Shown here: positions 9,501 to 50,588 of the stretch, piece by piece
Layout of the letters: each line of letters begins with the position of its first letter
How positions within the stretch are numbered: the first letter of the stretch is position 1
Virus record (IMG/VR): IMGVR_UViG_2537561945_000005
Location: 1-50,588 of that record
Strand: one strand, 5' to 3'
Length of the DNA stretch: 50,588 nucleotides
Origin: a virus
Taxonomy: Duplodnaviria; Heunggongvirae; Uroviricota; Caudoviricetes
The notes under the pieces: model-generated
Databases searched by the model: none
Seen by the model: the letters and a program-made list of their open reading frames with translations, nothing else
Told to the model about the DNA's origin: nothing
Made by a program: the position numbers and the translations under genes

Positions 9501-9629
9501 CCGAGCCCTCGCTGTTTCTTTCGATTTGCTGTGTTAAGCTAATATTTTAATATCCATGTTTCTGTTTGCTTGCAGTGTGTTTCTCACCACCATCCAAACG
9601 TACTGGTTACTAGCTATGTGATGATGAAG

Positions 9630-10643: not shown

Positions 10644-10650
10644 GTAACAC

Positions 10651-10685
10651 CGCTCTTTATCAATCTGCACCGCCGACAACGCGGT
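10651..10685 (+). promoter_or_regulatory. nutR (boxA CGCTCTTTATCA, boxB hairpin)
   Basis: boxA consensus at 10651-10662 and a 5-bp stem hairpin ACCGC-CGACAAC-GCGGT at 10669-10685, between cro and cII. Confidence 0.6.
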
Positions 10686-10749
10686 AACTAATTAAGAACT
10701 CATCGAAAGATGCGTATTAGTGATTATTTACCTATGGAAATAGTAAGAA

Positions 10750-11049
10750 ATGGAACAAACAAATTACAGCAAACTATCACAGCGCGACGTTGATCGCGCA
10801 GAAACAGATTTACTTATCAACCTGTCAACGCTTACTCAGCGCGGTCTGGCAAAGATGATTGGCTGTCATGAATCGAAGATAAGCAGAACAGACTGGAGGT
10901 TTATAGCTTCGGTCTTGTGTGCTTTTGGCATGGCATCAGACATCAGTCCGATTAGCAGAGCTTTTAAGTATGCGCTTGATGAAATCACCAATAAAAAACG
11001 CCCGGTGTGCAAGACCGAGCGTTCTAATCAAATCCAGATGGAATTCTGA
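10750..11049 (+). CDS. cII: CII transcriptional activator
   Basis: C-terminus ITNKKRPVCKTERSNQIQMEF matches lambda CII; HTH in the middle; position after cro. Confidence 0.8.
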   Translation: MEQTNYSKLSQRDVDRAETDLLINLSTLTQRGLAKMIGCHESKISRTDWRFIASVLCAFGMASDISPISRAFKYALDEITNKKRPVCKTERSNQIQMEF

Positions 11050-11071
11050 GGTCATTACTGGATCTATCAAC
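10995..11071 (-). ncRNA. oop: oop antisense RNA (by positional homology)
   Basis: The cII 3' end and the 33-bp cII-O spacer are lambda-like; coordinates transferred from lambda oop, which overlaps the cII 3' end. Confidence 0.45.
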
Positions 11072-11081
11072 AGGAGTCATT

Positions 11082-11981
11082 ATGACAAATACAGCAAAAA
11101 TACTCAACTTCGGCAGAGGTAACTTTGCCGGACAGGAGCGTAATGTGGCAGATCTCGATGATGGTTACGCCAGACTATCAAATATGCTGCTTGAGGCTTA
11201 TTCAGGCGCAGATCTGACCAAGCGACAGTTTAAAGTGCTGCTTGCCATTCTGCGTAAAACCTATGGGTGGAATAAACCAATGGACAGAATCACCGATTCT
11301 CAACTTAGCGAGATTACAAAGTTACCTGTCAAACGGTGCAATGAAGCCAAGTTAGAACTCGTCAGAATGAATATTATCAAGCAGCAAGGCGGCATGTTTG
11401 GACCAAATAAAAACATCTCAGAATGGTGTATCCCTCAAAACGAGGGAAAATCCCCTAAAACGAGGGATAAAACATCCCTCAAATTGGGGGATTGCTATCC
11501 CTCAAAACAGGGGGACACAAAAGACACTATTACAAAAGAAAAAAGAAAAGATTATTCGTCCGAGAATTCTGGCGAATCCTCTGACCAGCCAGAAAACGAT
11601 CTTTCTGTGGTTAAACCGGATGCTGCAATTCAGAGCGGCAGCAAGTGGGGGACAGCAGAAGACCTGACCGCCGCAGAGTGGATGTTTGACATGGTGAAGA
11701 CTATCGCACCATCAGCCAGAAAACCGAATTTTGCTGGGTGGGCTAACGATATCCGCCTGATGCGTGAACGTGACGGACGTAACCACCGCGACATGTGTGT
11801 ACTGTTCCGCTGGGCATGCCAGGACAACTTCTGGTCCGGTAACGTGCTGAGTCCGGCTAAACTCCGCGACAAGTGGACCCAGCTCGAAATCAACCGTAAC
11901 AAGCAACAGGCTGGCGTGACAGCCAGAAAACCAAAACTCGACCTGACAAACACTGACTGGATTTACGGGGTGGATTTATGA
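11082..11981 (+). CDS. O: Replication initiator O
   Basis: 299 aa, near-identical to lambda O. Confidence 0.95.
   Translation: MTNTAKILNFGRGNFAGQERNVADLDDGYARLSNMLLEAYSGADLTKRQFKVLLAILRKTYGWNKPMDRITDSQLSEITKLPVKRCNEAKLELVRMNIIKQQGGMFGPNKNISEWCIPQNEGKSPKTRDKTSLKLGDCYPSKQGDTKDTITKEKRKDYSSENSGESSDQPENDLSVVKPDAAIQSGSKWGTAEDLTAAEWMFDMVKTIAPSARKPNFAGWANDIRLMRERDGRNHRDMCVLFRWACQDNFWSGNVLSPAKLRDKWTQLEINRNKQQAGVTARKPKLDLTNTDWIYGVDL
11431..11560 (+). repeat. ori-lambda: four iterons plus AT-rich segment
   Basis: Four 17-19 bp iterons (TCCCTCAAAACGAGGGA-like) at 11431, 11451, 11474 and 11497, followed by an A/T-rich stretch inside O. Confidence 0.85.
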
Positions 11982-12679
11982 AAAACATCGCCGCACAGAT
12001 GGTTAACTTTGACCGTGAGCAGATGCGTCGGATCGCCAACAACATGCCGGAACAGTACGACGAAAAGCCGCAGGTACAGCAGGTAGCGCAGATCATCAAC
12101 GGTGTGTTCAGCCAGTTACTGGCAACTTTCCCGGCGAGCCTGGCTAACCGTGACCAGAATGAACTGAACGAAATCCGCCGCCAGTGGGTTCTGGCTTTCC
12201 GGGAAAACGGGATCACCACAATGGAACAGGTTAACGCAGGAATGCGCGTAGCCCGTCGGCAGAATCGACCATTCCTGCCATCACCCGGGCAGTTTGTCGC
12301 CTGGTGCCGGGAAGAAGCATCCGTTAACGCCGGGCTGCCAAACGTCAGCGAGCTGGTTGATATGGTTTACGAGTATTGCCGGAAGCGAGGCCTGTATCCG
12401 GATGCGGAGTCTTATCCGTGGAAATCAAACGCGCACTACTGGCTGGTTACCAACCTGTATCAGAACATGCGGGCCAATGCGCTTACTGATGCGGAATTAC
12501 GCCGTAAGGCCGCAGATGAGCTTGTCCATATGACTGCGAGAATTAACCGTGGTGAGGCGATCCCTGAACCAGTAAAACAACTTCCTGTCATGGGCGGTAG
12601 ACCTCTAAATCGTGCACAGGCTCTGGCGAAGATCGCAGAACTCAAAGCTAAGTTCGGACTGAAAGGAGCAAGTGTATGA
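11978..12679 (+). CDS. P: Replication protein P (DnaB loader)
   Basis: 233 aa, near-identical to lambda P. Confidence 0.95.
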   Translation: MKNIAAQMVNFDREQMRRIANNMPEQYDEKPQVQQVAQIINGVFSQLLATFPASLANRDQNELNEIRRQWVLAFRENGITTMEQVNAGMRVARRQNRPFLPSPGQFVAWCREEASVNAGLPNVSELVDMVYEYCRKRGLYPDAESYPWKSNAHYWLVTNLYQNMRANALTDAELRRKAADELVHMTARINRGEAIPEPVKQLPVMGGRPLNRAQALAKIAELKAKFGLKGASV

Positions 12680-12966
12680 CGGGCAAAGAGGCAATTATTC
12701 ATTACCTGGGGACGCATAATAGCTTCTGTGCGCCGGACGTTGCCGCGCTAACAGGCGCAACAGTAACCAGCATAAATCAGGCCGCGGCTAAAATGGCACG
12801 GGCAGGTCTTCTGGTTATCGAAGGTAAGGTCTGGCGAACGGTGTATTACCGGTTTGCTACCAAGGAAGAACGGGAAGGAAAGATGAGCACGAACCTGATT
12901 TTTAAGGAGTGTCGCCAGAGTGCCGCGATGAAACGGGTATTGGCGGTATATGGAGTTAAAAGATGA
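12676..12966 (+). CDS. ren: Ren
   Basis: 96 aa matching lambda Ren. Confidence 0.85.
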   Translation: MTGKEAIIHYLGTHNSFCAPDVAALTGATVTSINQAAAKMARAGLLVIEGKVWRTVYYRFATKEEREGKMSTNLIFKECRQSAAMKRVLAVYGVKR

Positions 12967-13039
12967 CCATCTACATTACTGAGCTAATAACAGGCCTGCT
13001 GGTAATCGCAGGCCTTTTTATTTGGGGGAGAGGGAAGTC

Positions 13040-13480
13040 ATGAAAAAACTAACCTTTGAAATTCGATCTCCAGCACATCAGCAAAACGCTATTCACGCAG
13101 TACAGCAAATCCTTCCAGACCCAACCAAACCAATCGTAGTAACCATTCAGGAACGCAACCGCAGCTTAGACCAAAACAGGAAGCTATGGGCCTGCTTAGG
13201 TGACGTCTCTCGTCAGGTTGAATGGCATGGTCGCTGGCTGGATGCAGAAAGCTGGAAGTGTGTGTTTACCGCAGCATTAAAGCAGCAGGATGTTGTTCCT
13301 AACCTTGCCGGGAATGGCTTTGTGGTAATAGGCCAGTCAACCAGCAGGATGCGTGTAGGCGAATTTGCGGAGCTATTAGAGCTTATACAGGCATTCGGTA
13401 CAGAGCGTGGCGTTAAGTGGTCAGACGAAGCGAGACTGGCTCTGGAGTGGAAAGCGAGATGGGGAGATCGGGCTGCATGA
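13040..13480 (+). CDS. ninB: NinB (Orf) recombination mediator
   Basis: 146 aa from MKKLTFEIRSPAHQQNAIHAV matches lambda NinB. Confidence 0.85.
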   Translation: MKKLTFEIRSPAHQQNAIHAVQQILPDPTKPIVVTIQERNRSLDQNRKLWACLGDVSRQVEWHGRWLDAESWKCVFTAALKQQDVVPNLAGNGFVVIGQSTSRMRVGEFAELLELIQAFGTERGVKWSDEARLALEWKARWGDRAA

Positions 13481-14004
13481 CAATCAAATCAAATACGCCA
13501 GCACACGACAAGGACTGCTGGCAAACGCCGCTTTGGCTTTTTGATGCACTGGATATTGAGTTTGGATTCTGGCTGGATTCGGCAGCGAGCGACAAAAATG
13601 CTCTGTGTGCTCACTGGCTAACTGAGGCCGACGACGCGCTCAATTCTGAGTGGGTAAGCCACGGTGCAATCTGGAATAACCCACCGTACAGCAATATCAG
13701 GCCGTGGGTGGAAAAAGCCGCTGAGCAGTGCATACAACAGCGACAGACGGTAGTTATGCTTGTGCCAGAGGATATGTCAGTCGGATGGTTCAGCAAGGCT
13801 CTGGAGAGTGTCGACGAAGTTCGCATTATCACTGATGGACGGATTAATTTTATCGAACCATCGACAGGGTTGGAGAAGAAGGGAAACAGCAAAGGCTCCA
13901 TGCTGCTGATTTGGCGACCGTTCATCAGTCCTCGACGGATGTTTACTACCGTATCCAAAGCGGCATTGATGGCGATCGGGCAGGGCGTCAGGAGGGCGGC
14001 ATGA
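13477..14004 (+). CDS. Phage N6-adenine DNA methyltransferase (Dam-like)
   Basis: 175 aa with NPPY motif ([10 protein letters not shown]) in the nin region; ATGA overlap with the ninB stop. Confidence 0.7.
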
Positions 14005-14177
14005 GGCGACAGCGACGAAGTTTCACCGACATCATCTGCGAAAACTGCAAATACCTTCCAACGAAACGCTCCAGAAATAAACGCAAGCCAATCCCAAAAG
14101 AATCTGACGTAAAAACCTTCAATTACACAGCTCACCTGTGGGATATCCGGTGGCTAAGATATCGTGCGAGGAAATGA
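14001..14177 (+). CDS. ninE: NinE-family protein
   Basis: 58 aa [37 protein letters not shown] matches the lambdoid NinE family. Confidence 0.6.
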
Positions 14178-14179
14178 CA

Positions 14180-14521
14180 ATGGATTATTCACAGTTAAGT
14201 GATTTTGAAATTAACAGAATGGTAGGAGACATAATTTTTAAAGGCCTTTGGGCAAGTAAACCGGAAACATCAGGGAATAACACCAACAAATGGTATTACG
14301 GAAATGCTGATACAACTTTTGAGCCATTAAATCATTTGCCTGACTACTGCAATGATCCGAGCGCTTCATGGCCGATTATTGAGAAATACAGGATTTCTAT
14401 CTTAGACCAGTTAACTGAATGGTGTGTGGATGCAAAAGGCGTAAGCCCAATATTTGATACCAGACCTCTCCGCGCCGCCATGATTGTCTTTCTCCTGATG
14501 CAGGAGGCCAATAATGCTTAG
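14180..14521 (+). CDS. Hypothetical nin-region protein
   Basis: 113-aa ORF with GAGGA 8 nt upstream; no family recognised. Confidence 0.45.
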
Positions 14522-14708
14522 CCCATCTCAATCCCTTCAATACCAGAAAGGAAGCATAGAGCGGGCTTCAATGAGCACAGAGTGGATTCTATCTAGGTTT
14601 AGCGCATACAGAAGATTGCCGGTAAAGGGCATGCCAAGCAAGTCGATGCTGCATATGCAAAAGAATGCGCGCTGGAAGGTATGGCGAAAACACAGGTTAT
14701 GTGGCTGA
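14514..14708 (+). CDS. NinF-like ORF, divergent after 12 residues (possible remnant)
   Basis: N-terminus [12 protein letters not shown] matches lambda NinF, but the remainder lacks the Cys-rich NinF body. Confidence 0.3.
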
Positions 14709-14727
14709 AAGAGGGGATTATTAAGGC

Positions 14728-15090
14728 GTGAATACCTACAGCATCACATTACCCTGGCCTCCGAGCAATAATCGCTATTACCGCCATAATCGCGGGCGCA
14801 CGCACGTCAGCGCAGAGGGGCAGGCATACCGCGATAACGTCGCCAGAATCATTAAAAACGCAATGCTGGATATCGGCCTGGCTATCCCTGTGAAAATCCG
14901 CATTGAGTGCCACATGCCGGATCGCCGTCGCCGTGACCTGGATAATCTGCAAAAAGCCGCTTTTGACGCACTCACTAAAGCAGGTTTCTGGCTGGATGAT
15001 GCTCAGGTCGTTGATTACCGCGTTGTGAAGATGCCTGTTACCAAAGGTGGGAGGCTGGAACTGACCATCACCGAAATGGGGAATGAATGA
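14728..15090 (+). CDS. rusA: RusA Holliday-junction resolvase
   Basis: 120 aa, essentially identical to E. coli DLP12 RusA. Confidence 0.9.
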
Positions 15091-15227
15091 TGTTTGAGTT
15101 TAATATGGCAGAACTTCTTCGCCACCGCTGGATGCGCCTGCGCTTATATCGTTTCCCCAGTTCTGTTTTGACCGATTACCGAATACTGAAGAATTACGCC
15201 AAAACCCTGACAGGAGCAGGAGTATGA
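15090..15227 (+). CDS. ylcG: YlcG-like small protein
   Basis: 45-aa [25 protein letters not shown]... between rusA and Q as in DLP12; below the ORF-track length cutoff. Confidence 0.45.
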   Translation: MFEFNMAELLRHRWMRLRLYRFPSSVLTDYRILKNYAKTLTGAGV

Positions 15228-15312
15228 AGTCAGAGATAACAATCAACTAATACTGTTTTGTTGATTTTTGCTTGTAATTGGCGTTCTGGTCTGATTTTTG
15301 TGGAGTAAGTTG

Positions 15313-15696
15313 ATGCGTGATATTCAGATGGTTCTTGAGCGTTGGGGAGCGTGGGCGGCTAATAATCATGAAGATGTGACCTGGTCGTCCATTGCCGCCG
15401 GTTTTAAGGGATTAATTACTTCAAAAGTAAAATCTCGCCCGCAATGTTGTGACGATGACGCGATGATTATTTGCGGGTGCATGGCCCGTCTGAAAAAGAA
15501 CAACAGCGATTTGCACGATTTATTAGTAGATTATTATGTAGTCGGTATGACATTCATGTCACTGGCAGGTAAGCATTGCTGCTCTGATGGTTATATCGGG
15601 AAAAGGTTACAGAAGGCTGAGGGCATAATTGAAGGGATGTTAATGGCATTAGATATCCGGTTAGAGATGGATATCGTTGTTAATAACTCTAATTAA
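15313..15696 (+). CDS. Q: Late antiterminator Q, DLP12 QuuD / phage 21 type
   Basis: 127 aa [22 protein letters not shown]... matches DLP12 QuuD; sits upstream of the porin and lysis genes. Confidence 0.75.
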
Positions 15697-15885
15697 TATG
15701 CCAATTATTTACTAAAAGTTATTAAAAATGGGGCGTTGAGACGCCCCCAAAAATAAAGGGTAATATATAACAGAAGGTTTATATAGTTAGAAGCAAGGTT
15801 GTGCTTCTAAAGGAAGTGGCTTGAGGGAGCCACTTATATGTTGGGGAGGCAACGCCTCCCGCAACATATCTTTTTCGTAATCAGA

Positions 15886-16983
15886 TTAGAACTGGTAAAC
15901 CAGACCTACAGCAACGATGTCATCAGTGCTTACACCGAGTGCTTTAGTGAAGTCATTTTTGTCAAGCAGGTTGATTTTGTAATCAACGAAAGTAGACATA
16001 TTTTTGTTGAAGTAATAGGTTGCACCTACATCAACATATTTGACTAAGTCCTGATCGCCCCATACTCCAAGATCCTTACCTTTAGATTGCAGGTAAGCAA
16101 CGGACGGACGCAGACCGAAATCGAACTGATATTGTGCAACAGCTTCGAAGTTTTGGGCTTTATTAGCAACGAAGTGATCAGCAAATACAGTCATATTCTG
16201 GGTTTCAGAATAGGTAGTGGCCAGGTAAATGTTGTTAGCGTCATATTTCAGACCTGCGGCCCAAACTTCTGCATTTTTACCGGAAGCAAATACTTCAGGA
16301 AGAACTTTCCCTGCATTAACTTGAGTGTCGGTACGATCAGATTTCGCATAAGTTGCACCGATACCGAATCCTTCGTATTCATAGGTAGCAGAGAAACCGA
16401 AGCCATCACCGTTACCTTCAGTGTAGTTATCGAAATCGCTACGATCGTTTTTGCCTTGGTACTGAGCAGCAAAGTTCAGACCATCAACCAGACCAAAGAA
16501 GTCGTTGTTACGATAGGTTGCAACACCAGTTGCACGTTGAGTCATGAACACGTCGGTTTGAGTCCAAGTGTCACCACCGAATTCTGGCAGGACGTCAGTC
16601 CACGCACCGATGTCGTATGCTACACCGTAGTTACGGCCGTAATCGATGGAGCCGTAGTCACCGAATTTCAGGCCAGCGAAGGCAAGACGGGTTTTATCTT
16701 TGGAGGAACCTTGAGATTCAGCGCGGTTGCCTTTGAATTCATATTCCCACTGACCGAAACCAGTCAGTTGATCGTTGATTTGGGTTTCACCTTTGAAGCC
16801 AAGACGGGCATAAGTAGTATCACCATCATCTGCATCATTAGAGGAGAAGTAGTGCTTAGCATTAACTTTCCCGTACAGATCCAGCTTGTTACTGTCTTTA
16901 TTATAAATTTCAGCTGCCTGAGCAGACATCGCCATCAGTACTGATGCAGCTACAGCAGAAATTGCCACTGTTAATTTTTTCAT
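15886..16983 (-). CDS. nmpC: Outer-membrane general porin, NmpC/Lc (OmpC family), intact
   Basis: 366 aa with signal peptide [23 protein letters not shown] and C-terminal ...VGLVYQF; OmpC/OmpF-type beta-barrel; same location as nmpC in DLP12. Confidence 0.85.
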
Positions 16984-17189
16984 CGTGAGCCCTTTTTTTG
17001 AACTATTATTAAAAAATGATGTCACTGCGCGATAAATATTCATCTAATCAATGTGATTATTTCAAGATGTAAGTTTTGGTTTCTCGTTTGATTTGTGAAG
17101 TAGATCTCTATTTTTATCTGAACTTTTTTCTATCGAATCCTATTCATGGCTCTTTGCTGAATAAAAATAAATCTATTAGCCAATTTATA

Positions 17190-17225
17190 TTAACGGCTGT
17201 TATTTATAAGTGCTCTATAATTTGA
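17190..17225 (+). promoter_or_regulatory. Candidate late promoter pR' (-10 TATAAT at 17216-17221)
   Basis: Consensus -10 hexamer about 190 nt upstream of a strong terminator; -35 is weak. Position between Q and lysis genes fits a Q-dependent late promoter. Confidence 0.35.
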
Positions 17226-17410
17226 AGGTTCAATTTAAACCGGCTAAAAATAACACTGGAAATTATTTGTTGGTTATTTGTTGGGATTTGCTTATGTATT
17301 TGTAGTGGTGTTTTCAATACTCGGTAGCATTCTCGCAAATATCATTTAGTGGTTTACGTACGTAAAAAATTGGTTATGCTGTTAAGAGTGGTTACTTCGT
17401 CACACAGCTT

Positions 17411-17443
17411 AAACCCGCCGTCGAGCGGGTTTTTCCATTTTTT
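17411..17443 (+). terminator. Rho-independent terminator (candidate tR')
   Basis: Hairpin ACCCGC-CGTCGA-GCGGGT followed by TTTTTCCATTTTTT, upstream of the holin gene. Confidence 0.6.
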
Positions 17444-17555
17444 GAGTCTCGATATTAGCTGATAACCCAATACCTGAGTTATTCACTGACTCCGAGTCTG
17501 TTACGTTTCGTAGTATTCCCTCAATTTACACCCGCTTTGTCTGCGAGGTGGGGTT

Positions 17556-17771
17556 ATGAAATCCATGGATAAGTTAACAACGGGTGTCGCCTATGGCACC
17601 TCAGCAGGTAGTGCCGGTTACTGGTTTTTACAGCTGCTCGATAAAGTCACGCCCTCACAGTGGGCAGCAATAGGTGTGCTGGGTAGCCTGGTATTTGGCC
17701 TGCTGACGTACCTGACAAACCTTTATTTCAAGATTAAAGAAGATAAGCGCAAGGCTGCGAGAGGTGAATAA
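17556..17771 (+). CDS. S: Pinholin, S21 type
   Basis: 71 aa with two TM segments; matches phage 21 S / DLP12 EssD. Confidence 0.85.
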
Positions 17772-18268
17772 TGCCTCCATCATTACGAAAAGCCGTTGCT
17801 GCTGCTATTGGTGGCGGAGCAATTGCTATAGCATCAGTGTTAATTACTGGCCCAAGTGGTAACGATGGTCTGGAAGGTGTCAGCTACATACCATACAAAG
17901 ATATTGTTGGTGTATGGACTGTATGTCACGGGCATACAGGAAAAGACATCATGCTCGGTAAAACGTATACCAAAGCAGAATGCAAAGCCCTCCTGAATAA
18001 AGACCTTGCCACGGTCGCCAGACAAATTAACCCGTACATCAAAGTCGATATACCGGAAACAATGCGCGGCGCTCTTTACTCATTCGTTTACAACGTGGGT
18101 GCTGGCAATTTCAGAACATCGACGCTTCTTCGCAAAATAAACCAAGGCGATATCAAAGGCGCATGTGATCAGCTACGTCGCTGGACATATGCTGGCGGTA
18201 AGCAATGGAAAGGTCTCATGACTCGTCGTGAGATTGAGCGTGAAATCTGTTTGTGGGGTCAGCAATGA
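17771..18268 (+). CDS. R: SAR endolysin (lysozyme), R21 type
   Basis: 165 aa with N-terminal signal-anchor-release segment ([18 protein letters not shown]) and T4-lysozyme-like body. Confidence 0.85.
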
Positions 18269-18726
18269 ACAGAGTAACCGCGATTATCTCCGCTCTGGTT
18301 ATCTGCATCATCGTCGGCCTGTCATGGGCTGTTAATCATTACCGTGATAACGCCATTACCTACAAAGCCCAGCGCGACAAAAATGCCAGAGAACTGAAGC
18401 TGGCGAACGCGGCAATTACTGACATGCAGATGCGTCAGCGTGATGTTGCTGCGCTCGATGCAAAATACACGAAGGAGTTAGCTGATGCGAAAGCTGAAAA
18501 TGATGCTCTGCGTGATGATGTTGCCGCTGGTCGTCGTCGGTTGCACATCAAAGCAGTCTGTCAGTCAGTGCGTGAAGCCACCACCGCCTCCGGCGTGGAT
18601 AATGCAGCCTCCCCCCGACTGGCAGACACCGCTGAACGGGATTATTTCACCCTCAGAGAGAGGCTGATCACTATGCAAAAACAACTGGAAGGAACCCAGA
18701 AGTATATTAATGAGCAGTGCAGATAG
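18265..18726 (+). CDS. Rz: Rz i-spanin
   Basis: N-terminal TM then coiled-coil; ATGA overlap with the endolysin stop. ORF track begins at GTG 18253. Confidence 0.8.
18485..18667 (+). CDS. Rz1: Rz1 o-spanin lipoprotein, embedded in Rz
   Basis: 60-aa +1-frame ORF inside Rz with lipobox VVVGC and a proline-rich body. Confidence 0.7.
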
Positions 18727-18757
18727 AGCTGCCCATATCGATGGGCAACTCATGCAA

Positions 18758-19051
18758 TTATTGTGAGCAATACACACGCGCTTCCAGCGGAGTATAAATG
18801 CCTAAAGTAATAAAACCGAGCAATCCATTTACGAATGTTTGCTGGGTTTCTGTTTTAACAACATTTTCTGCGCCGCCACAAATTTTGGCTGCATCAACAG
18901 TTTTCTCCTGTCCAATTCCCGAAACGAAGAAATGATGGGTGATGGTTTCCTTTGGTGTTACTGCTGTCGGTTTGTTTCCAACAGTAAACGTCTGTTGAGC
19001 ACATCCTGTAATAAGCATTGCCAGAGCGGCAGAAAACAACATTTTTTTCAT
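18758..19051 (-). CDS. bor: Bor lipoprotein (serum-resistance, lysogenic conversion)
   Basis: 97 aa MKKMLFSAALAMLITGCAQQTFTVGNK... matches lambda Bor; lipobox LITGC. Confidence 0.85.
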   Translation of the reverse strand: MKKMLFSAALAMLITGCAQQTFTVGNKPTAVTPKETITHHFFVSGIGQEKTVDAAKICGGAENVVKTETQQTFVNGLLGFITLGIYTPLEARVYCSQ

Positions 19052-19151
19052 CTTATTATCCTGTATTGTTAAAAACAGCAGAATCCTATGTGACAACAAT
19101 TAAACGATAGTTAAATGGATTGATGAAAATTAAAACTATATAGGTGTACGG

Positions 19152-19418
19152 TCAGACTATTGGAGGTAGTCTGGATTTGAATGTCAGTGTGTTGTCGGCA
19201 TTATGGCAATGCAATTTGGATAAAGCGGGGATTAAAAAGATAGAGGCGAGCCGGTCAGGTAGAAATGAATCAGGCTCAAAGTGAAGCGGAAAAGGTCTTT
19301 GGCACAAACTGATGCTGCCATAATTACAGCCTGATGACTTGTGGAATGAAACATGTTGAACCTCCTTAATTGATGTGATTCGAGTGAGGAAGGCATTCTG
19401 TCCCTCTATAGTGTCCAT
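19152..19418 (-). CDS. Hypothetical ORF downstream of bor
   Basis: 88-aa ORF with no recognisable features; may be non-coding. Confidence 0.2.
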   Translation of the reverse strand: MDTIEGQNAFLTRITSIKEVQHVSFHKSSGCNYGSISLCQRPFPLHFEPDSFLPDRLASIFLIPALSKLHCHNADNTLTFKSRLPPIV

Positions 19419-19575
19419 TAAATCAAACGGGAAATTTGTCTCATGCGTGAGACAAGTCTCTCCATTAGTGAGTTGTATTGATCGCGACTCTTCAAAGAAT
19501 CCATTACTGCGTTGATGAAAAAGGTTTACTACGAATGAAGGCAGCTATTTCGCTGGTTTCTTCATTGGAGTACAT

Positions 19576-19926
19576 ATGCCCCCACGAACCCCAAAAGCCT
19601 GCCGTGTTCGCGGCTGCCGCCATACCACCACTGACCCGTCAGGTTATTGCGAAAGCCACAAAAGCGAAGGCTGGAAGCAATACAAGCCAGGACAGTCCCG
19701 TCATCAGCGTGGTTATGGTTCTAAGTGGGATGTTATACGTACGCGCATTCTGAAGCGTGACAAAGGCCTGTGTCAGTTATGTCTGCGTGCTGGTGTGGTG
19801 CGTGAGGCGAAAACTGTTGACCACATCATCCCTAAAGCGCATGGCGGCACTGATGCCGACTGTAATCTGCAGAGTCTGTGCTGGCCGTGTCATAAGGCGA
19901 AGACGGCCCGTGAACGGTTGAAGTGA
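19576..19926 (+). CDS. HNH endonuclease (terminase-associated, HK97 gp74 type)
   Basis: 116 aa with paired CxxC and HNH motifs (CQLCLRAG...DHIIPKAHGG...CWPCH), immediately upstream of terS. Confidence 0.8.
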   Translation: MPPRTPKACRVRGCRHTTTDPSGYCESHKSEGWKQYKPGQSRHQRGYGSKWDVIRTRILKRDKGLCQLCLRAGVVREAKTVDHIIPKAHGGTDADCNLQSLCWPCHKAKTARERLK

Positions 19927-20051
19927 TAATGATTCTCAACTGCCTGAGGGGAGGGGCGGGTCAAATCCCTGCGGCCTGACGTCTTCCGGACTGCCCGCCC
20001 CATCGTTTTTTTATACCCGCGAAAAATGAAATTTAACCAGGAGTGCCGCAT
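19927..20051. other. Candidate cos region
   Basis: GC-rich inverted repeat GGGGCGGG...CCCGCCCC (19963-20006) between the HNH gene and terS, where HK97-type phages place cos. Confidence 0.3.
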
Positions 20052-20546
20052 ATGGCTGGAACGGCGGGGCGTTCCGGGCGTCGCCCCAAGCCAACGGCGC
20101 GCAAGGCGCTGTCCGGAAACCCCGGCAAGCGAGCCCTGAACAAAGATGAACCTGTTTTTACGCCCATCAAAGGTGTTGAGCCACCGGAGTGGTTCGCTGA
20201 AGAGGATCTCCCTCTCGCCACGATCATGTGGCAACTGACAACCAAAGAACTCTGCGGTCAGGGCCTGCTGTGCGTGACTGACCTAGCGGTACTTGAGCGG
20301 TGGTGCGTGGCCTATGAGTTCTGGCGACGTGCCGTGAAAAATATTGCCAGACAGGGCAACACCATCACCGGTGCAATGGGCGGTATGGTCAAAAATCCGG
20401 AGCTGACCGCCAAGAAAGAACAGGAGTCCGAGATGAGCAGCACGGGGGCAATGCTCGGACTCGACCCCAGCAGCCGCCAGCGTCTGATTGGCCTGGCGGG
20501 GCAGAAGAAAGCCACTAACCCGTTTCTGAAAATCATCGAATCATGA
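20052..20546 (+). CDS. terS: Terminase small subunit (HK97 gp1 / P27 family)
   Basis: [14 protein letters not shown]... with AGGAG 8 nt upstream; ORF track starts at GTG 20043. Confidence 0.8.
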
Positions 20547-25608: not shown

Positions 25609-25809
25609 ATGATACTGAAACAAGATCTGAAATGGTCACCGGACGGTATGCGTGTTGAGGTCATTCGGGCCGGTGAGTATGACGACGGGGCGCTTCCTGC
25701 CCGGGTGCAGGAGATTGCACTTCAGGCCGGGTTAGCAGAGCGCGGAATCAGTGCAAAAAGCAGTAAAGCGGCAAAAGAGAAAAAAGCCACGACCAGTAAA
25801 GAGGGCTGA
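25609..25809 (+). CDS. Small head-module protein
   Basis: 66-aa ORF between capsid and connector genes; function not assignable. Confidence 0.4.
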   Translation: MILKQDLKWSPDGMRVEVIRAGEYDDGALPARVQEIALQAGLAERGISAKSSKAAKEKKATTSKEG

Positions 25810-25811
25810 GT

Positions 25812-26135
25812 ATGCTTCTGACAATGGAAGAGATTAAAGCCCAACTCCGGCTGGATGAGGATTTCGATGCTGATGACCGCCATCTGCAACTGCTGGCCTG
25901 TGCGGCACAAAAGCGGACGGAAACGTATCTGAACCGGAAGCTCTATGCACCGGATAAAACCATTCCGGACAGCGATCCGGACGGGCTGCACCTGCCGGAT
26001 GATATTCGTCTGGGGATGCTGATGCTTATCAGCCATTTTTACGAAAACCGCTCGTCGGTTACGGAAGTGGAGAAACTCGACATGCCGCAGAGTTTTGGCT
26101 GGCTTGTCGGCCCGTACAGGTACTTTCCGCAATGA
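25812..26135 (+). CDS. Head-tail connector (gp6-like)
   Basis: 107 aa; size and position match a head-completion/connector protein. Confidence 0.65.
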   Translation: MLLTMEEIKAQLRLDEDFDADDRHLQLLACAAQKRTETYLNRKLYAPDKTIPDSDPDGLHLPDDIRLGMLMLISHFYENRSSVTEVEKLDMPQSFGWLVGPYRYFPQ

Positions 26136-43106: not shown

Positions 43107-43155
43107 ATTCGTAATGCGAAGGTCGTAGGTTCGACTCCTATTATCGGCACCATTT
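43107..43155 (+). repeat. attR of the prophage / attL of the downstream island: partial thrW 3' copy
   Basis: Exact 49-bp copy of 1399-1447; no tRNA 5' half, so not a functional tRNA. Confidence 0.8.
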
Positions 43156-43315
43156 CAAACTCTTCCCAAGTCTACCGAAATCAACTAAAAGCTCGTATAC
43201 TGCGGTTTCTGGCCCGTATCTTATCTCCTGTTATCAACTAGACTCAACCGAAATCAAGTCGCAGTTGGGGGCATAAGTGGGGGCATTTTGTGTTCGGTCT
43301 AGGGAGATGCCCCCA

Positions 43316-44524
43316 ATGAAACTTAATGCGCGACAGGTAGACGCAGCTAAACCCAGAGAGAAAGCCTATAAGCTGGCAGATGGTGCTGGTTTGTATCTTG
43401 AGGTTGTTCCCTCTGGTTCCAGATACTGGCGGATGAAATATCGCTTCAATGGAAAAGAGAAGCGTATGGCCTTTGGTGTCTATCCGGCAGTGTCCCTTGC
43501 ACAAGCGAGGGCACTGCGTGACGACGCCAAGAAAAAGCTTGCCGAAGGTATCGATCCATCGCTTGCCAAGAAAGAAGAAAAGCTGGTTCGAGATGTGCAG
43601 CTAAATAATACGTTTCAGGCTGTGGCACTTGAATGGCATGGAACGAAGGTGAGCCGATGGTCAGAAGGTTATGCCTCGGACATTATCGAAGCCTTTAATA
43701 AAGATATTTTTCCCTATATTGGCCAACAACCGGTGAATGAAATCAAACCGCTGGTTCTGCTTAATGTGCTGCGTCGAATTGAAAGCCGTGGCGCGACAGA
43801 GAAGGCCAAGAAGGTTCGCCAGCGTTGCAGCGAAGTCTTTCGTTACGCCATCGTAACCGGTCGTGCGGAATACAATCCTGCAGCGGATCTTACCAGCGCG
43901 ATGTCAGGGCATGAATCGAAGCATTATCCCTTCCTTACTGTTGAGGAGTTACCAGACTTTTTTAAAGCTCTCGCAGGCTACACAGGAAGCCCGTTAGTTG
44001 TTCTTGCGGCACGTCTGCTGATCCTCACGGGAGTTCGCACTGGCGAACTCCGAGGTGCTTTCTGGAGTGAGTTTGATCTTGAAAAAGCGGTGTGGGAGAT
44101 ACCTGCCGAGCGTATGAAGATGAAACGGCCTCACCTTGTCCCCCTCTCTACCCAAGCGCTGGAAATCGTACAGCAACTCAAAGTGATGTCAGGGCAATAT
44201 CCACTGGTGTTCCCGGGACGTAATGATCCCCGCAAGACGATGAGTGAAGCGAGTATTAATCAGGTTTTTAAGCGGATTGGATATACGGGGAGGGTAACGG
44301 GGCATGGTTTCCGTCACACGATGAGTACGATTTTGCATGAGGAAGGTTTCAATACAGCGTGGATTGAAACCCAGCTGGCTCACGTTGATAAAAATGCGAT
44401 TCGTGGGACGTATAACCATGCGTTGTATTTGGAAGGACGTAGGGAGATGATGCAGTGGTATGCGGACTATATAAACGCTAATCATAATTCATGTATTTCT
44501 TTGCTGGTGAACGCTACAAAGTAG
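43316..44524 (+). CDS. int: Tyrosine integrase, P4 type
   Basis: 402 aa with N-terminus MKLNARQVDAAKPREKAYKLADGAGLYLEVVPSGSRYWRMKYRFNGKEKRMAFGVYP and C-terminal R..HxxR..Y catalytic region; adjacent to the tRNA-derived att copy. Confidence 0.85.
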   Translation: MKLNARQVDAAKPREKAYKLADGAGLYLEVVPSGSRYWRMKYRFNGKEKRMAFGVYPAVSLAQARALRDDAKKKLAEGIDPSLAKKEEKLVRDVQLNNTFQAVALEWHGTKVSRWSEGYASDIIEAFNKDIFPYIGQQPVNEIKPLVLLNVLRRIESRGATEKAKKVRQRCSEVFRYAIVTGRAEYNPAADLTSAMSGHESKHYPFLTVEELPDFFKALAGYTGSPLVVLAARLLILTGVRTGELRGAFWSEFDLEKAVWEIPAERMKMKRPHLVPLSTQALEIVQQLKVMSGQYPLVFPGRNDPRKTMSEASINQVFKRIGYTGRVTGHGFRHTMSTILHEEGFNTAWIETQLAHVDKNAIRGTYNHALYLEGRREMMQWYADYINANHNSCISLLVNATK

Positions 44525-44765: not shown

Positions 44766-45974
44766 ATGAACAGTAACTATATGCCATTCACACAACGAGA
44801 TAGTCTCGGAAGATACTATACAAAAGAATCCATAAGTGCATTATTGGTTTCTCAGATGAAAGCTGAAAAAGTCAATAATATTATTGATTTAGCTTCTGGT
44901 GAGGGGAGCTTAACCTATGCTGCTTTAGACCGATGGAAGAATGCAGAAGCATATTCTTTGGATATAGAATCTCGGATGTCAAAAAAAGTATGTGATAATC
45001 TTACTCATATTGTAACAGATGCCCTTGTTCATTCATTTCCTGAAATGCTTGCCCGACATCAAGGAAATTTTGATGTTGCAGTATGTAATCCTCCATTCAC
45101 TCTCCCTGAATGGAGGGATGATTATTTTAAAATCATTAGTGAGATTGGCGCAGATAAATATATATCTGTCTCAAAATATGTCCCAGCAGAGATAATATTT
45201 ATATCTCAAGTCATCAGGTTTCTTAAAAAGGGCGGTGAGGCTGGAATAATTTTACCTGATGGTATATTTACAGCAAGAAAGTTTATAGGTTTAAGACGAT
45301 ATTTATTGAATGAACATTCAATTACAAAAGTCATTGAATTGCCTAGGAATATCTTCAAAAGGACAGAGGCTAAAACACATATTTTAATTTTTAATAAAAA
45401 AATTATGCCTCATCATAAAATACAATTACATTGTATAACTAAAGATGGGGAATTGTCGCCTCCTGTTTTAATTAGAAAAGAAGATGCGGTTGAGAGAATG
45501 GACTACTCTTATCATTATAATAAAAATGAAGGTAAAGGGTTTAGCACAATAGGGATGCTTAAAAACATTTCAATTTTTAGAGGTAGGTTTAATTCAAAGG
45601 AAATTACGGAACATGTTTTTCATACGACAAAATTTAGTGGTGATGAAAAGTACATTAAATTCCACTGCAACTCTGTAGAAGAATTGAAGCCATCAAAATT
45701 AGATGTCATTGCTAAGCCTGGTGATATATTAATAGCAAGAGTTGGGCGAAATTTTCATAAAAAAATATTGTTTGTTGAGAGCGGCTATTCTTATATCAGT
45801 GACTGTATTTTTCTGATACGAGCCTCTGGTGGAGATAAGAAAAAACTATTTGATTTTCTTTGTTCTCAAGATGGGCAAGAGGAATTATCTCGAGCGAGTA
45901 GTGGTGTAGCCGCACAACATATTACAATGGATGCATTAAAAAAAATACATCTTGTAAGGATTAAACATGACTGA
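44766..45974 (+). CDS. N6-adenine DNA methyltransferase, gamma class (M.TaqI-like layout: catalytic domain plus C-terminal putative TRD)
   Basis: Motif X GRYYTKESI, motif I IIDLASGEGSL and motif IV NPPF in N-to-C order within the first ~115 aa; ~200-aa C-terminal domain; AT-rich. Confidence 0.75.
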   Translation: MNSNYMPFTQRDSLGRYYTKESISALLVSQMKAEKVNNIIDLASGEGSLTYAALDRWKNAEAYSLDIESRMSKKVCDNLTHIVTDALVHSFPEMLARHQGNFDVAVCNPPFTLPEWRDDYFKIISEIGADKYISVSKYVPAEIIFISQVIRFLKKGGEAGIILPDGIFTARKFIGLRRYLLNEHSITKVIELPRNIFKRTEAKTHILIFNKKIMPHHKIQLHCITKDGELSPPVLIRKEDAVERMDYSYHYNKNEGKGFSTIGMLKNISIFRGRFNSKEITEHVFHTTKFSGDEKYIKFHCNSVEELKPSKLDVIAKPGDILIARVGRNFHKKILFVESGYSYISDCIFLIRASGGDKKKLFDFLCSQDGQEELSRASSGVAAQHITMDALKKIHLVRIKHD

Positions 45975-47673
45975 TGTGGAATTAGATAGTAATTTTCTTA
46001 TCGAGGAACGAGCTGATTATATTGATGAGGATACGATAAAAAATAATACTATCAGATCTGGAGAGTTTTTCGATATTATACATAATGCTCTTATATCCCC
46101 AGGCATCAAACTTATAGTTGGTCCTAGGGGATGTGGTAAAACACATTTGATGCGTTATGCTTGGGTTGAATGTAAAAACGATGATAACGCACCATTACCA
46201 CTCTATGTTTCTTTTAATAAATATTTTAAGTTAGAGCCGCTTTTAAAAAATAAACCAAATGCAATTGATCTCTTTCATAAATGGGTATTAGCAAAGATAC
46301 TACTCTCTGCTTATGAAATTGCTTGCGATATTGAAGATTCTGAATATCTTGATTTGTCAACGATACTCATAGCGGATAAAGAGTTCCTAATTAATTTAAT
46401 CGTAAGGCTTGAGCAGGGTCTTTCGCCATCATTAGAACAAGAAAACATTGTTCAATTGATCAGTGTTTCTTCTGTCATATCCTCGTTGAGTTCACTATGT
46501 GATTGGCTTGAACGTAAAAGAGTCATTATTTTATTAGACGATGCAGCAATAAGCTTAACTCCTGAATATCTTTACGAGTTTTTTGATATTGTACGTAGTC
46601 TAAAAACCTCAAAAATAGCTTTAAAGGCATCGGTTTATCCTGGAACAACCGAATATGGCCCAAGGTTTCATGTTGCTCATGATGCTGAAACAATTGATGC
46701 TTGGATTTCGGTACAGCACCCTAATTATTCCTCAGTGATGGATGCTATAGCGCAGGCAAGGTTTCCTGGGTATGATGGCATTCCGGATGACTTGAAAGAG
46801 TTATTTAAATTCTCAGCATTTGGTATTCCACGTTCTTTTTTGATGATGTTAAGAGATTATCAAACAACTTTAAGTCAGACAACTCAGCAAAAATTTAATA
46901 AAATAATTGAAAGGTATGTTGAGCTTAGACTCAGCGAATACAGTTCACTAAAAGATAAGCTACCTCGATTGTTTGACATTGTTTCATTAGGTGAATCACT
47001 TTTATTAAAAGTAGTCGAATTACTCAAGGAAAGTAACTCCCAATATAAAGAAGAGAAACAAGTCATAATCGGTATAGAGAAAAATGATAATGTTTATTTT
47101 TCTCGACTCACTAAGCTATTAATTGAAACAGGGCTTTTTTATAATCTTCCTGATATTTCTCATGGTGATGGGCGTACTTATGAAAGATATATACCTCATT
47201 ATGCTTTATTAATAAAGGAAAGAGTGTTTAACGAAGGAAGTAGAGGTTTTTCTCCTTCTCAGATTATTCAAAAAATACTAAGAAAGAATGCTAAGCATCC
47301 TGTCAGAAGAAACATTTCATCATTATTCAATGCTGAGCAACTTGCGAGACTTAAACTAACTTTACCTCCATGCAATAACTGCAAGACTCCGCGATTGACT
47401 GACAATCAAAAATTTTGCCATCATTGTGGGAATCAATTGATTGATGAGTCGGCCTATAATCAGTGCATGTCTATTCCACTGTCAAAAGTACCACATCTAA
47501 CATCTTGGCAAATGCAAAAACTATCTGGGCTGGAAAAAGTAAAAACTATAGGAGATGTATTGTCTTTACAAGACCCTGGGAGTGAGTTAAGAAAAATTCA
47601 CAGAATAGGACCCAAAATTGCCAATAAAATTATGGACAAAGTGTTATTACATGTTGAAGAGTTTTTGTCTTAA
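45967..47673 (+). CDS. P-loop NTPase with C-terminal zinc ribbon and helix-hairpin-helix
   Basis: Walker A GPRGCGKTHLMR, Walker B VIILLDDAA, C-terminal CNNCK...CHHCG and HhH-like IHRIGPKIANKI; 8-nt overlap with the methyltransferase gene. Confidence 0.7.
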   Translation: MTDVELDSNFLIEERADYIDEDTIKNNTIRSGEFFDIIHNALISPGIKLIVGPRGCGKTHLMRYAWVECKNDDNAPLPLYVSFNKYFKLEPLLKNKPNAIDLFHKWVLAKILLSAYEIACDIEDSEYLDLSTILIADKEFLINLIVRLEQGLSPSLEQENIVQLISVSSVISSLSSLCDWLERKRVIILLDDAAISLTPEYLYEFFDIVRSLKTSKIALKASVYPGTTEYGPRFHVAHDAETIDAWISVQHPNYSSVMDAIAQARFPGYDGIPDDLKELFKFSAFGIPRSFLMMLRDYQTTLSQTTQQKFNKIIERYVELRLSEYSSLKDKLPRLFDIVSLGESLLLKVVELLKESNSQYKEEKQVIIGIEKNDNVYFSRLTKLLIETGLFYNLPDISHGDGRTYERYIPHYALLIKERVFNEGSRGFSPSQIIQKILRKNAKHPVRRNISSLFNAEQLARLKLTLPPCNNCKTPRLTDNQKFCHHCGNQLIDESAYNQCMSIPLSKVPHLTSWQMQKLSGLEKVKTIGDVLSLQDPGSELRKIHRIGPKIANKIMDKVLLHVEEFLS

Positions 47674-47743
47674 TTTTGATGGCATGTACTTGTCAATCGT
47701 GTCTTTCTTATCTGAAAAGTTTAATTTAAAAAGAGTCGGGAAA

Positions 47744-48739
47744 ATGGAACTAGAATCAAAAGAGGATTATGAAGAGACCACTCATCATAATGTGGCGTCC
47801 TCAGTTGTCACTGCAACCCATGATAACTTAGATGGAAGAGAGTTTTTTGAACTATGTAGTAATCCAGCTCTAGTTTTTTCGTTTGAGACACACAAAAAAT
47901 TTAATGAGTTACCTGTTGATAGCAAGGAATCCCCGTTAGATCTTTTTATAGCTAATACAAAGCAACTTCACTTGTTAAGATCTGGTGATATTTCAAACAC
48001 ATTAAGCCATCTGTTGTTATTAGGTTATGTGTCTGCAGCCGAAAGTTATTTGCGAGCTCTTATCAGAAATCTAATTAATCATGATGAATATATACAGTCT
48101 ATAGTTTCTGATAAGGCCGTTAGTTATGCAGCGGCACAACACCATAAAAAGGAGTTATTACCAGAAGCTTTACTTGAGGACTTTTCATTGGCAAGCCCTT
48201 ATAATGTTTTTGAAACATTAAAGGACATTATTGGAATGAAAGGACAACGACCAATCGAAATGATGAAATGCTCAAGCGAATTCATGAAAGTTTGCGAGTT
48301 AAGGCATTGTTGTGTTCATCGATTTGGTAAGTTGGGTTCGAAAAATGCAATCCGACTAGGATTGGCTGAACATATGAAGCACTTAGAAAAACCGATAATA
48401 CTCAATAATGATGATCTCGAGCAAATCGCATTTATTGTTGAGAATTTTATTAGAACTTTGAATAATACCGTTTTCAAATTTATAATTAATCGTACAGTTG
48501 AGAACAAAAATAAGGAAAAAGGAGGGGAAAGACTATATGATTCTGAATGGACATGGGTGTTTGAAAAAGATATAAGTCGATACGAAAAGTATTATTCAAT
48601 ATTTAGTGCCAAAAACGATACCCTTCCCGGATTATCATTACAGGATTCATATCAACTTTTTGTTAATGCATATAAGCCTAAACTTCCTGCAAGAAAAAAT
48701 AAAAAAAAACTGAAGAAAATTAACGCCACTACTATCTGA
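47744..48739 (+). CDS. Hypothetical protein, third operon gene (possible HEPN-like R-x4-H motif)
   Basis: ~331-aa ORF after the ATPase; contains ELRHCCVHRFGK fitting R-x4-H in a predicted helical context; upstream in-frame starts at 47618 and 47684 are possible. Confidence 0.55.
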   Translation: MELESKEDYEETTHHNVASSVVTATHDNLDGREFFELCSNPALVFSFETHKKFNELPVDSKESPLDLFIANTKQLHLLRSGDISNTLSHLLLLGYVSAAESYLRALIRNLINHDEYIQSIVSDKAVSYAAAQHHKKELLPEALLEDFSLASPYNVFETLKDIIGMKGQRPIEMMKCSSEFMKVCELRHCCVHRFGKLGSKNAIRLGLAEHMKHLEKPIILNNDDLEQIAFIVENFIRTLNNTVFKFIINRTVENKNKEKGGERLYDSEWTWVFEKDISRYEKYYSIFSAKNDTLPGLSLQDSYQLFVNAYKPKLPARKNKKKLKKINATTI

Positions 48740-48925
48740 AAATATTAGTAATTTTTACTTGAAATGGCAGGGCGTTATTTTTTTTTTGATTGAATATGGG
48801 TAATGTTAAATATCTAATCATTTGAAACTTCTAGCTATATTAATAAATGTAATGTGTGAATGATGATGGTGCTTGCTTTAACTATAGATTGTTATTCCAT
48901 ATAGAAATTAGGTAATGACTCCAAC

Positions 48926-49429
48926 TTATTGATAGTGTTTTATGTTCAGATAATGCCCGATGACCTTGTCATGCAGCTCCACCGATTTTGAGAACGACAG
49001 TGACTTCCGTCCCAGCCTTGCCAGATGTTGTCTCAGATTCAGATTATGTCGCTCAATGCGCTGAGTGTAACGCTTGCTGATAACGTGCAGCTTTCCCTTC
49101 AGGCGTGATTCATACAGCGGCCAGCCATCCGTCATCCATACCACGACCTCAAAGGCCGACAGCAGGCTCAGAAGACGCTCCAGTGTGGCCAGAGTGCGTT
49201 CACCGAAGACGTGCGCCACAACCGTCCTCCGTATCCTGTCATACGCGTAAAACAGCCAGCGCTGACGTGATTTAGCACCGACGTAGCCCCACTGTTCGTC
49301 CATTTCAGCGCAGACAATCACATCACTGCCCGGTTGTATGCGCGAGGTTACCGACTGCGGCCTGAGTTTTTTAAGTGACGTAAAACCGTGTTGAGGCCAA
49401 CGCCCATAATGCGTGCACTGGCGCGACAT
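48926..49429 (-). CDS. insB: IS1 transposase InsB
   Basis: 167 aa matching IS1 InsB. Confidence 0.88.
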
Positions 49430-49623
49430 CCGACGCCATTCATGGCCATATCAATGATTTTCTGGTGCGTACCGGGCTGAGAGGCGGTGTAAGTGAACTG
49501 TAGTTGCCATGTTTTACGGCAATGAGAGCAGAGATAGCGCTGATGTCCGGCAGTGCTTTTGCCGTTACGCACCACGCCTTCAGTAGCGGAGCAGGAAGGA
49601 CATCTGATGGAAATGGAAGCCAC
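49348..49623 (-). CDS. insA: IS1 InsA
   Basis: 91 aa [43 protein letters not shown]... matching IS1 InsA. Confidence 0.88.
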
Positions 49624-50033
49624 GCAAGCACCTTAAAATCACCATCATACACTAAATCAGTAAGTTGGCAGCATTACCAGCAGATGTAAAGAATACCGCT
49701 TTGTTAATCTGACTTGTAGACTTCTTTGGGATTGTATCACTTTCACTCATAATCATTTATTCCATTAATTAAATTCGCACTGGATAGAAGGTACTACCTC
49801 TCACAGAGTAGCAAAGTTCAACTGGCTATGCGGCGTTAATCGGAATGCATGGTGGAATGTGAATCGCCACCGGTTTTTTAGGGGGTTGTAGAGTGGCATC
49901 GGAAAGAGGTTTTTAGGGGGGGAGGTTGATAATACCGCGCCCCCATAATCTTGCCATCTCTTACATTGAGATGTTAAAAGCTACAAATGCTCTCCCTATT
50001 TTTCAATGTAGACATTTATAGCAATATAAAAAT

Positions 50034-50588
50034 TTATTGTTCAGCTTTTTCAACAACAAAACCATTTTGCCAAACAAACACAATCAAGAGTTCAATATTA
50101 ACAATACCCCATTGATTAGAAATGGCGACAATTTCACCAGAAGGAAGTGTAATCAATGCATCTTCGTTGATATGATAGCGACTCTTTTGCTTCTCTGGTA
50201 TCTGATCGATAAGTATAACCGTACGTTTTTTAAAGTCTTCACTTAATCCATTTATTAAATCATTATAACTTGCAGGGTTAAATTGTTTTATACAATCGCG
50301 TAATAACTCAAGCGCTAACTTACGTTTATTAAGTTTTTTATCTTTGCATATATACCACGTATAGCCCTTCTCTTTTTTCTGACTGCTAATTAGCTGCTCA
50401 TCACGTTTTTCACGAAACTTAACTTGATATTCTTCCAATTCAGGAACCGGTATGATTTGCTCTGCATTGATCAGAACATCATCATTAAATCTATAAGGCG
50501 TCAGACGAACACATCGAATGTCTACCCCTTTATCTCTTAACCAAATCGCAGTGGTAGTCAGTTCCTTGCTAAAATCCGATGAAGCCAA
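50034..50588 (-). CDS. Hypothetical protein, N-terminally truncated by the window edge
   Basis: 184 codons open to the window end; AT-rich; no family recognised. Confidence 0.4.
   Translation of the reverse strand: MASSDFSKELTTTAIWLRDKGVDIRCVRLTPYRFNDDVLINAEQIIPVPELEEYQVKFREKRDEQLISSQKKEKGYTWYICKDKKLNKRKLALELLRDCIKQFNPASYNDLINGLSEDFKKRTVILIDQIPEKQKSRYHINEDALITLPSGEIVAISNQWGIVNIELLIVFVWQNGFVVEKAEQ

Follow-up and report, generated by a model that had tools for sequence, protein, structure and literature searches.

The complete IS1 at coordinates 48911 to 49678 of the window (the whole 50588 bp stretch of DNA that was analysed) is not a simple insertion but the splice point of two unrelated mobile pieces, namely a methyltransferase/ATPase island integrated at thrW and an unrelated BREX phage-defence island of the tRNA type. 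The last 7.6 kb of the window matched the E. coli BE311 genome exactly, and the order in the window was proA, thrW, a lambdoid prophage, a P4-type integrase, a three-gene operon, a hairpin and the IS1, with the relevant features located as follows:

1369–1444, thrW tRNA gene
1445–43106, lambdoid prophage of ~41.7 kb, inserted in thrW and preceding a 49 bp copy of the thrW 3' end
43107–43155, plus strand, the 49 bp copy of the 3' part of thrW, at the right end of the lambdoid prophage
43143–43200, plus strand, attL of the small integrase island (island-specific att), overlapping the thrW 3' copy (43107–43200 overall)
43316–44524, plus strand, P4-type tyrosine integrase of the thrW island (Arm-DNA-bind_3, Phage_int_M and Phage_integrase domains)
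44766–45974, plus strand, N6-adenine DNA methyltransferase (N6_Mtase), gene 1 of the cassette
45967–47673, plus strand, ORC/CDC6-like AAA ATPase with a C-terminal zinc ribbon, gene 2
47651–48739, plus strand, gene 3, no family match
48712–48787, plus strand, hairpin and U10 run (z-score -2.9), intact upstream of the IS1
48902–48910, left flanking 9-mer, TAGAAATTA
48911–49678, minus strand, complete IS1, 768 bp
48911–48933, IRR-side terminal repeat of the IS1
48926–49429, minus strand, insB', 167 aa ORF
49348–49623, minus strand, insA, 91 aa ORF
49656–49678, IRL-side terminal repeat of the IS1
49679–49687, right flanking 9-mer, AGCAGATGT, not related to its left counterpart
49679–49750, minus strand, 5' stub of a BCCT-family transporter gene, 24 codons (MSESDTIPKKSTSQINKAVFFTSA), cut by the IS1
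49751–49938, region upstream of the BCCT gene, ending in a G-rich segment
49875–49938, the G-rich segment of ~60 bp, GGTTTTTTAGGGGGTTG...GGTTTTTAGGGGGGGAGGTTG
50034–50588, minus strand, last 184 codons (C-terminal part) of a PDDEXK/NucS_C-like gene continuing past the window edge

The prophage in thrW places the integrase/cassette island ~41.7 kb from the tRNA gene, and the region at the right end of the prophage includes iss, a porin gene, IS421 and an AraC-family gene. The methyltransferase matched the PADLOC MTase_II model end to end (784 bits) and was the only match to a defined model in a PADLOC search of the cassette, with the ATPase and gene 3 assigned to no defence family. Homologues of the ATPase with 60% and 41% identity were found in loci L013 and L014, respectively, each followed by a homologue of the gene 3 product (59% and 34% identity). 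The hairpin with its U10 run is a probable terminator of the cassette; it has a long loop and was not called by a simple terminator scanner. An Rfam search of positions 48700–50100 returned just one chance hit below the threshold. The IS1 begins 171 bp after the stop codon of gene 3.

In its length (768 bp), its imperfect 23-nt terminal inverted repeats (83% complementary), its insA and insB' reading frames and the canonical A6C -1 frameshift site (TTAAAAAACTC, on the minus strand TTAAAAAACTCAGGCC, at ~49362–49373 as read from the sequence), the element resembles the IS1A/IS1R-type IS1 of E. coli and has all the features by which the IS1 family is recognised (~768 bp, imperfect repeats of ~23 bp, insA/insB' with an A6C site). 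It was the only IS1 in the window and was 100% identical to full-length copies in E. coli HS, BE311, F41 and K99S. Active transposition of IS1 in strain HS has been described (bioRxiv 10.64898/2026.05.19.726188). The RefSeq annotation of the identical BE311 genome records an IS1 transposase with a programmed frameshift, and the copy is complete and probably active.

A direct target-site duplication (TSD) of 8–9 bp is the hallmark of a simple IS1 insertion event and not of membership of the family. Unlike a fresh insertion, the IS1 in the window has no TSD of 9 bp (occasionally 8 bp), as TAGAAATTA and AGCAGATGT differ at 6 of 9 positions. When the ends were shifted by up to 4 bases and lengths of 7–14 were allowed, the best register still had 3/9 mismatches, which is the modal value for random pairs of positions in the window, and no register was better than chance. 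Neither flanking 9-mer, nor its reverse complement, was found anywhere else in the window. The observation in the earlier note that the flanking 9-mers are unrelated thus stands when mismatches and shifted ends are taken into account. No TSD was present at any of the eight IS1 copies examined across the compared loci. As both junctions of the window IS1 were present in ten independent complete genomes, the arrangement is not an assembly artefact. Recombination between IS copies and IS-adjacent deletion are the usual causes of missing TSDs and form an established category (PMC11708052).

The cassette 3' flank was found in 147 of 5426 complete E. coli genomes, and a probe spanning the IS1 position matched 146 genomes. 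The site was uninterrupted in 100 of these 146, reading ...CCATATAGAAATTA|TGTAGCATCGCAATT..., such that TAGAAATTA was followed directly by different DNA beginning TGTAGCATCG and continuing into an MFS-gene remnant, an IS21 remnant, yjhX and the lsr operon. Based on an evenly spaced sample of rows, the other 46 comprised ~36 genomes with an IS1 at the identical nucleotide and ~10 with a break 27 bp upstream. The two flanks of the window IS1 were never contiguous without IS1 in any of the 5426 genomes. The earlier note had taken the absent TSD as the mark of a rearrangement and had proposed that the DNA past the IS1, including the open reading frame truncated by the window edge, may not be the original neighbour of the operon; the empty site, from which the IS1-free genomes run into unrelated DNA, and the foreign right flank bear out both proposals.

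The continuation TGTAGCATCG occurred once per genome and was always contiguous with the cassette, indicating that a simple IS1 insertion flanked by two copies of TAGAAATTA is absent from the complete genomes. Such a postulated insertion intermediate would have TAGAAATTA on both sides of the IS1 and would read from the IS1 end into TAGAAATTATGTAGCATCG. The search for complementary half-TSDs that the earlier note had suggested yielded nothing: an IS1 followed by TAGAAATTA-TGTAGC was not found in any complete genome, and the native BCCT gene of BE311 is intact. In isolate 13E0767 (L015; coordinates 7122 to 7889), an independent IS1A with 91% identity lies 27 bp upstream of the window IS1 site, also without a TSD, and joins the cassette to the ykgE-region chromosome, indicating that the AT-rich 3' region of the cassette is a repeated IS1 target and breakpoint.

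To the right of the IS1, the BCCT stub retains 24 of the 666 codons of the full gene, the other 642 being absent at the window junction. The BCCT gene is intact beside the fec operon in roughly half of all E. coli genomes, including BE311, where 23 of the 24 residues of the stub match the native copy. As the native gene of BE311 is intact, the stub must have arrived with the BREX module. The edge-truncated open reading frame is the C-terminal part of a PDDEXK/NucS_C-like gene located upstream of brxA, and past the window BE311 carries a complete BREX-1 system (brxA-brxB-brxC-pglX-pglZ-brxL), followed by a Zn-ribbon/Gp2/GTPase...YeeU-CbtA island backbone that ends next to paoD.

The G-rich segment at the end of the BCCT upstream region is also found as the left boundary of PDDEXK-BREX modules at a different hotspot, and may be the seam between BCCT-upstream DNA and PDDEXK-BREX. 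It is common to BCCT-upstream DNA in strain CRE10 and to ~300 PDDEXK-BREX loci, which adjoin a phosphorothioate-dependent restriction endonuclease, and had no Rfam match. The PDDEXK/NucS_C-like gene (L001; coordinates 11335 to 12315) has decayed to a pseudogene in BE311, where its 5' third, lying outside the window, contains several indels. An intact version (332 aa) is present in NCTC9699 and 2016C-3878, while EC958 and HS carry IS1-truncated remnants annotated as frameshifted. Over this DNA, EC958 and BE311 are 99.6% identical.

The left junction of the window was found with three unrelated right-hand partners:

Left junction joined to BCCT codon 24: window/BE311 type, ten genomes
Same left junction joined to a point inside the PDDEXK gene: strain HS only, three assemblies
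Same left junction joined to an antiporter/decarboxylase module: M217 type

The right junction in M217, IS1|GATTTGCAG, and the 7.6 kb module behind it are identical to those in CFT073, where the left neighbour of the IS1 is ykgR in the selC island, and the IS1|GATTTGCAG junction was present at other loci in at least 60 genomes. The exact right junction of the window was found in NCTC9699, where it follows an outer-membrane-protein gene in the pheV island and its IS1 is another sequence variant (94% identical). In EC958 and ~69 other genomes, many of them ST131, the ykgR|IS1 junction of the selC context is joined to BREX. The thrW cassette and the selC island were thereby seen in all four combinations with the BREX and decarboxylase modules, with the IS1 always in the same orientation. 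Each junction occurs elsewhere with another partner, as in recombination between dispersed IS copies.

The module, which consists of an antiporter, an Orn-Lys-Arg decarboxylase and a second antiporter (L008, coordinates 13208 to 20518; L010, coordinates 8287 to 15597), is located at thrW in M217, at selC in CFT073 and in many other genomes, and is flanked by IS1 and by a distantly related IS1-family element in inverted orientation.

On the BREX side, the same end of the IS1 was found at four nested endpoints:

BCCT codon 70: 2016C-3878 type, which retains an extra 139 bp matching the native BCCT gene at 100% identity
BCCT codon 24: window type and NCTC9699
L001 coordinate 11455: EC958 type, ~69 genomes, removing the 3' end of the PDDEXK gene
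L001 coordinate 11909: HS only, a further 454 bp

HS corresponds to BE311 minus 929 bp, EC958 to BE311 minus 475 bp and NCTC9699 to 2016C-3878 minus 139 bp, all at the IS1 end, and beyond each endpoint the DNA is near-identical between the genomes compared (for BE311 and HS, until a hypervariable segment of pglX). Four nested endpoints at one IS1 end, a classical signature, indicate repeated IS1-adjacent deletions: the relatives have the IS and one junction in common, and the second junction reaches further and further into DNA that is otherwise colinear. Series of this kind starting at a fixed IS1 end were reportedly first described by Reif and Saedler in 1975, in gal/chl. In common with IS1-promoted adjacent deletions, the IS stays in place with one fixed junction, the second junction advances stepwise into the adjacent DNA and a TSD is lacking. 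The present series differs from those obtained in the laboratory in consisting of natural variants across lineages and tRNA islands, and the window's own junction is not assignable to this mechanism with certainty.

The joining step was most likely homologous recombination between an IS1 at the 3' end of the cassette and an IS1 bounding the body of the BREX island, a reading to which we assign a probability of roughly 0.55. An IS1 would first have inserted at TAGAAATTA in the AT-rich 3' region of the cassette. A separate IS1 would have entered the BCCT gene beside the BREX island, with a transposase-mediated adjacent deletion then extending back to codon 24. Homologous recombination between these two IS1 copies would have combined the left flank of the first with the right flank of the second, discarding the right arm and attR of the small island and one copy of each TSD. 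The recombination partner was probably incoming DNA or DNA of another island, with the shared island backbone serving as a second arm of homology. Later, in relatives such as EC958 and HS, the same IS1 end would have gone on to delete into the BREX-side flank. We infer both this order of events and a homologous, not transposase-driven, joining.

Homologous recombination is favoured because the modules occur in 2×2 combinations with each junction existing independently, because the M217 IS1 contains a conversion patch, and because the right-hand body of ~24 kb, which is 96–97% identical between the thrW and pheV islands, offers a second homology arm. BE311 has an undamaged native BCCT gene and an unoccupied selC site, which points to imported and not intragenomic DNA. 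The M217 IS1 is a mosaic with a selC-lineage SNP at position 19, which would place the crossover very near the IS1 end or reflect later gene conversion. Had the partner been a variant like that of NCTC9699, the crossover would be confined to the last 76 bp of the IS1. The right-hand modules of BE311 (thrW) and NCTC9699 (pheV) differ by 3–4%, suggesting either an old common junction or two origins at a single nucleotide.

The crossover positions near the IS1 ends and the divergence of 3–4% weigh against the homologous recombination model, as do three further observations. No insertion intermediate with TAGAAATTA on both sides of an IS1 was found in complete genomes, BE311 contains no reciprocal product, and the window IS1 is not visibly chimeric, being 100% the HS variant. 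The case therefore resembles recombination between dispersed IS copies in its exchanged partners, 2×2 modules and conversion patches, but differs in that neither a reciprocal product nor a clearly chimeric IS1 is present at the site. Chimerism of the IS1 was considered as proof of recombination and is not decisive, the window copy being non-chimeric and the M217 copy a mosaic.

A one-step adjacent deletion, in which the small and BREX islands stood in tandem at thrW and an IS1 at BCCT codon 24 attacked the upstream target TAGAAATTA by intramolecular transposition, is a genuine rival, though we consider it the less likely route. It would account for the window's own junction equally well and without homologous recombination, the right arm, attR, the integrase of the second island and everything up to the IS1 being lost at once. 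Adjacent deletion is evident at this locus from the 929, 475 and 139 bp losses in HS, EC958 and NCTC9699, and the absence of chimerism in the window IS1 suits it. Tandem occupation of thrW is seen in the window itself, where the prophage lies next to the island; the small island stands alone with its own attR in Kluyvera; and in NCTC9699 an integrase is found within a few kb of IS1|BCCT codon 24. However, no tandem precursor, and no parental arrangement with both window flanks and the deleted DNA on one molecule, was found among the 146 probe-matching genomes, and the nested deletions in relatives all start from the other IS1 end, on the BREX side. In addition, the identical left junction in M217, joined to the decarboxylase module via a CFT073-like IS1, would need either a second hit at the same nucleotide or recombination.

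That the BREX segment is a Tn9-like IS1 composite transposon inserted at TAGAAATTA, with a matching TSD at the outer end of a distal IS1, is very improbable. A remnant annotated as 'IS1 family transposase' does lie ~20 kb to the right in BE311 and NCTC9699, but it has no DNA similarity to the window IS1 and sits inside backbone shared with other islands. No second IS1 was present within 35 kb. TGTAGCATCG was absent from the 35 kb beyond the window and was never next to an IS1 in any complete genome, and TAGAAATTA-TGTAGCATCG was not found next to a distal IS1 end. As in Tn9-like composite transposons, an IS1 bounds a cargo segment found in several genomic contexts, but here there is neither a second bracketing IS1 nor an outer-end TSD. 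With no second IS1, a dissimilar remnant and no reappearing continuation, the composite transposon was excluded. The remnant itself is 147 bp long (L005, coordinates 14315 to 14461; L021, coordinates 25804 to 25950) and is conserved in the backbone of BE311 and NCTC9699.

Two further readings, a simple insertion in which point mutations erased the TSD and a misassembly at the repeated IS1, have only bare possibility in their favour and are scarcely credible, being refuted by the 6/9 mismatches with no better register, by flanks that are never contiguous in 5426 genomes with the left one continuing elsewhere in 100, by a right flank that is a truncated gene, and by both junctions recurring in ten independent complete assemblies.

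The earlier note had also raised the possibility that part of the island or of the system is missing, and this holds for the island and not for the system. E. coli genomes without the IS1 carry the same three genes and the same 171 bp 3' region, and the order methyltransferase-ATPase-gene 3 is kept at 35–60% aa identity in a gammaproteobacterial contig and in a Cupriavidus chromosome, where the genes downstream of the trio are unrelated to each other or to the window. By these comparisons, the three-gene methyltransferase/ATPase operon is not truncated and its 3' end is intact.

A compact thrW island of ~6.7 kb in Kluyvera sp. 142359 (L012; coordinates 2183 to 8951) carries the same integrase and cassette with 96% nucleotide identity, and was the only complete version of the small thrW island among the loci compared. 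It is bounded by an attL made up of the thrW 3' end and ~42 nt, and by an attR that is a 46-nt copy (8906 to 8951) located ~1 kb downstream of gene 3. A search of the window, of the 35 kb that follow it and of the other E. coli loci compared gave no copy of this attR. Relative to Kluyvera, the small island has evidently lost its right arm and attR, and in the window it is probably immobile. The empty-site E. coli genomes share just 30 bp more with Kluyvera past the IS1 position, and this end of similarity again marks the cassette 3' region as a repeated breakpoint.

As the cassette and BREX are adjacent only through the IS1 joint, it would be wrong to regard them as a single system or a single island. 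The comparison suggests that the integrase at thrW is part of the small cassette island and not of BREX, and this P4-type integrase should not be assumed to be the mobiliser of BREX. The BREX-1 island of E. coli HS has been described as located at thrW with a P4-family integrase, and the accessible portion of that report does not mention the IS1 joint (PMC9009780). A description of the window junction was not found in the literature searched. The HS locus shares the BREX-1 system, integrase, cassette, IS1 and left junction with the window, whereas the window retains 929 bp more next to the IS1 (the BCCT stub and the 3' part of the PDDEXK gene) and differs in the variable segment of pglX. The widely used HS BREX model has thus had its upstream edge eroded by IS1, losing the BCCT stub and over half of the PDDEXK-like gene, which is relevant to searches for upstream regulators of HS BREX.

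The phenomenon is already known and is an ordinary, textbook IS-mediated rearrangement. It is a clear case from nature of IS1 both reshuffling defence cargo among tRNA islands and trimming it. A broader idea, offered tentatively and probably going too far, is that IS1 acts as a recurrent, quasi-modular splice site through which whole defence cassettes are swapped among thrW, selC and pheV islands across E. coli lineages, with nucleotide-exact junctions being reused and edge trimming still under way. The cargo swapped would be BREX or the acid-resistance-type decarboxylase module, and, if true, this would represent a specific IS-driven route for shuffling defence systems and not a one-off accident.

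Near the 3' end of gene 3, an A9 tract (48701–48709) differs in length between genomes. B-2207 has A7 in its place, which shifts the stop codon and alters the last residues, and the annotated length of the product is 362 aa with A9 but 356 aa in B-2207, HS and M217. Either genuine variation in length or a sequencing error may account for this difference. Within BREX, a segment of pglX (L001 coordinates 18409 to 19058, compared with L002) is hypervariable between BE311 and HS, with 55–70 differences per 250 bp where the rest of BREX is near-identical, a pattern consistent with exchange of the target-recognition region.
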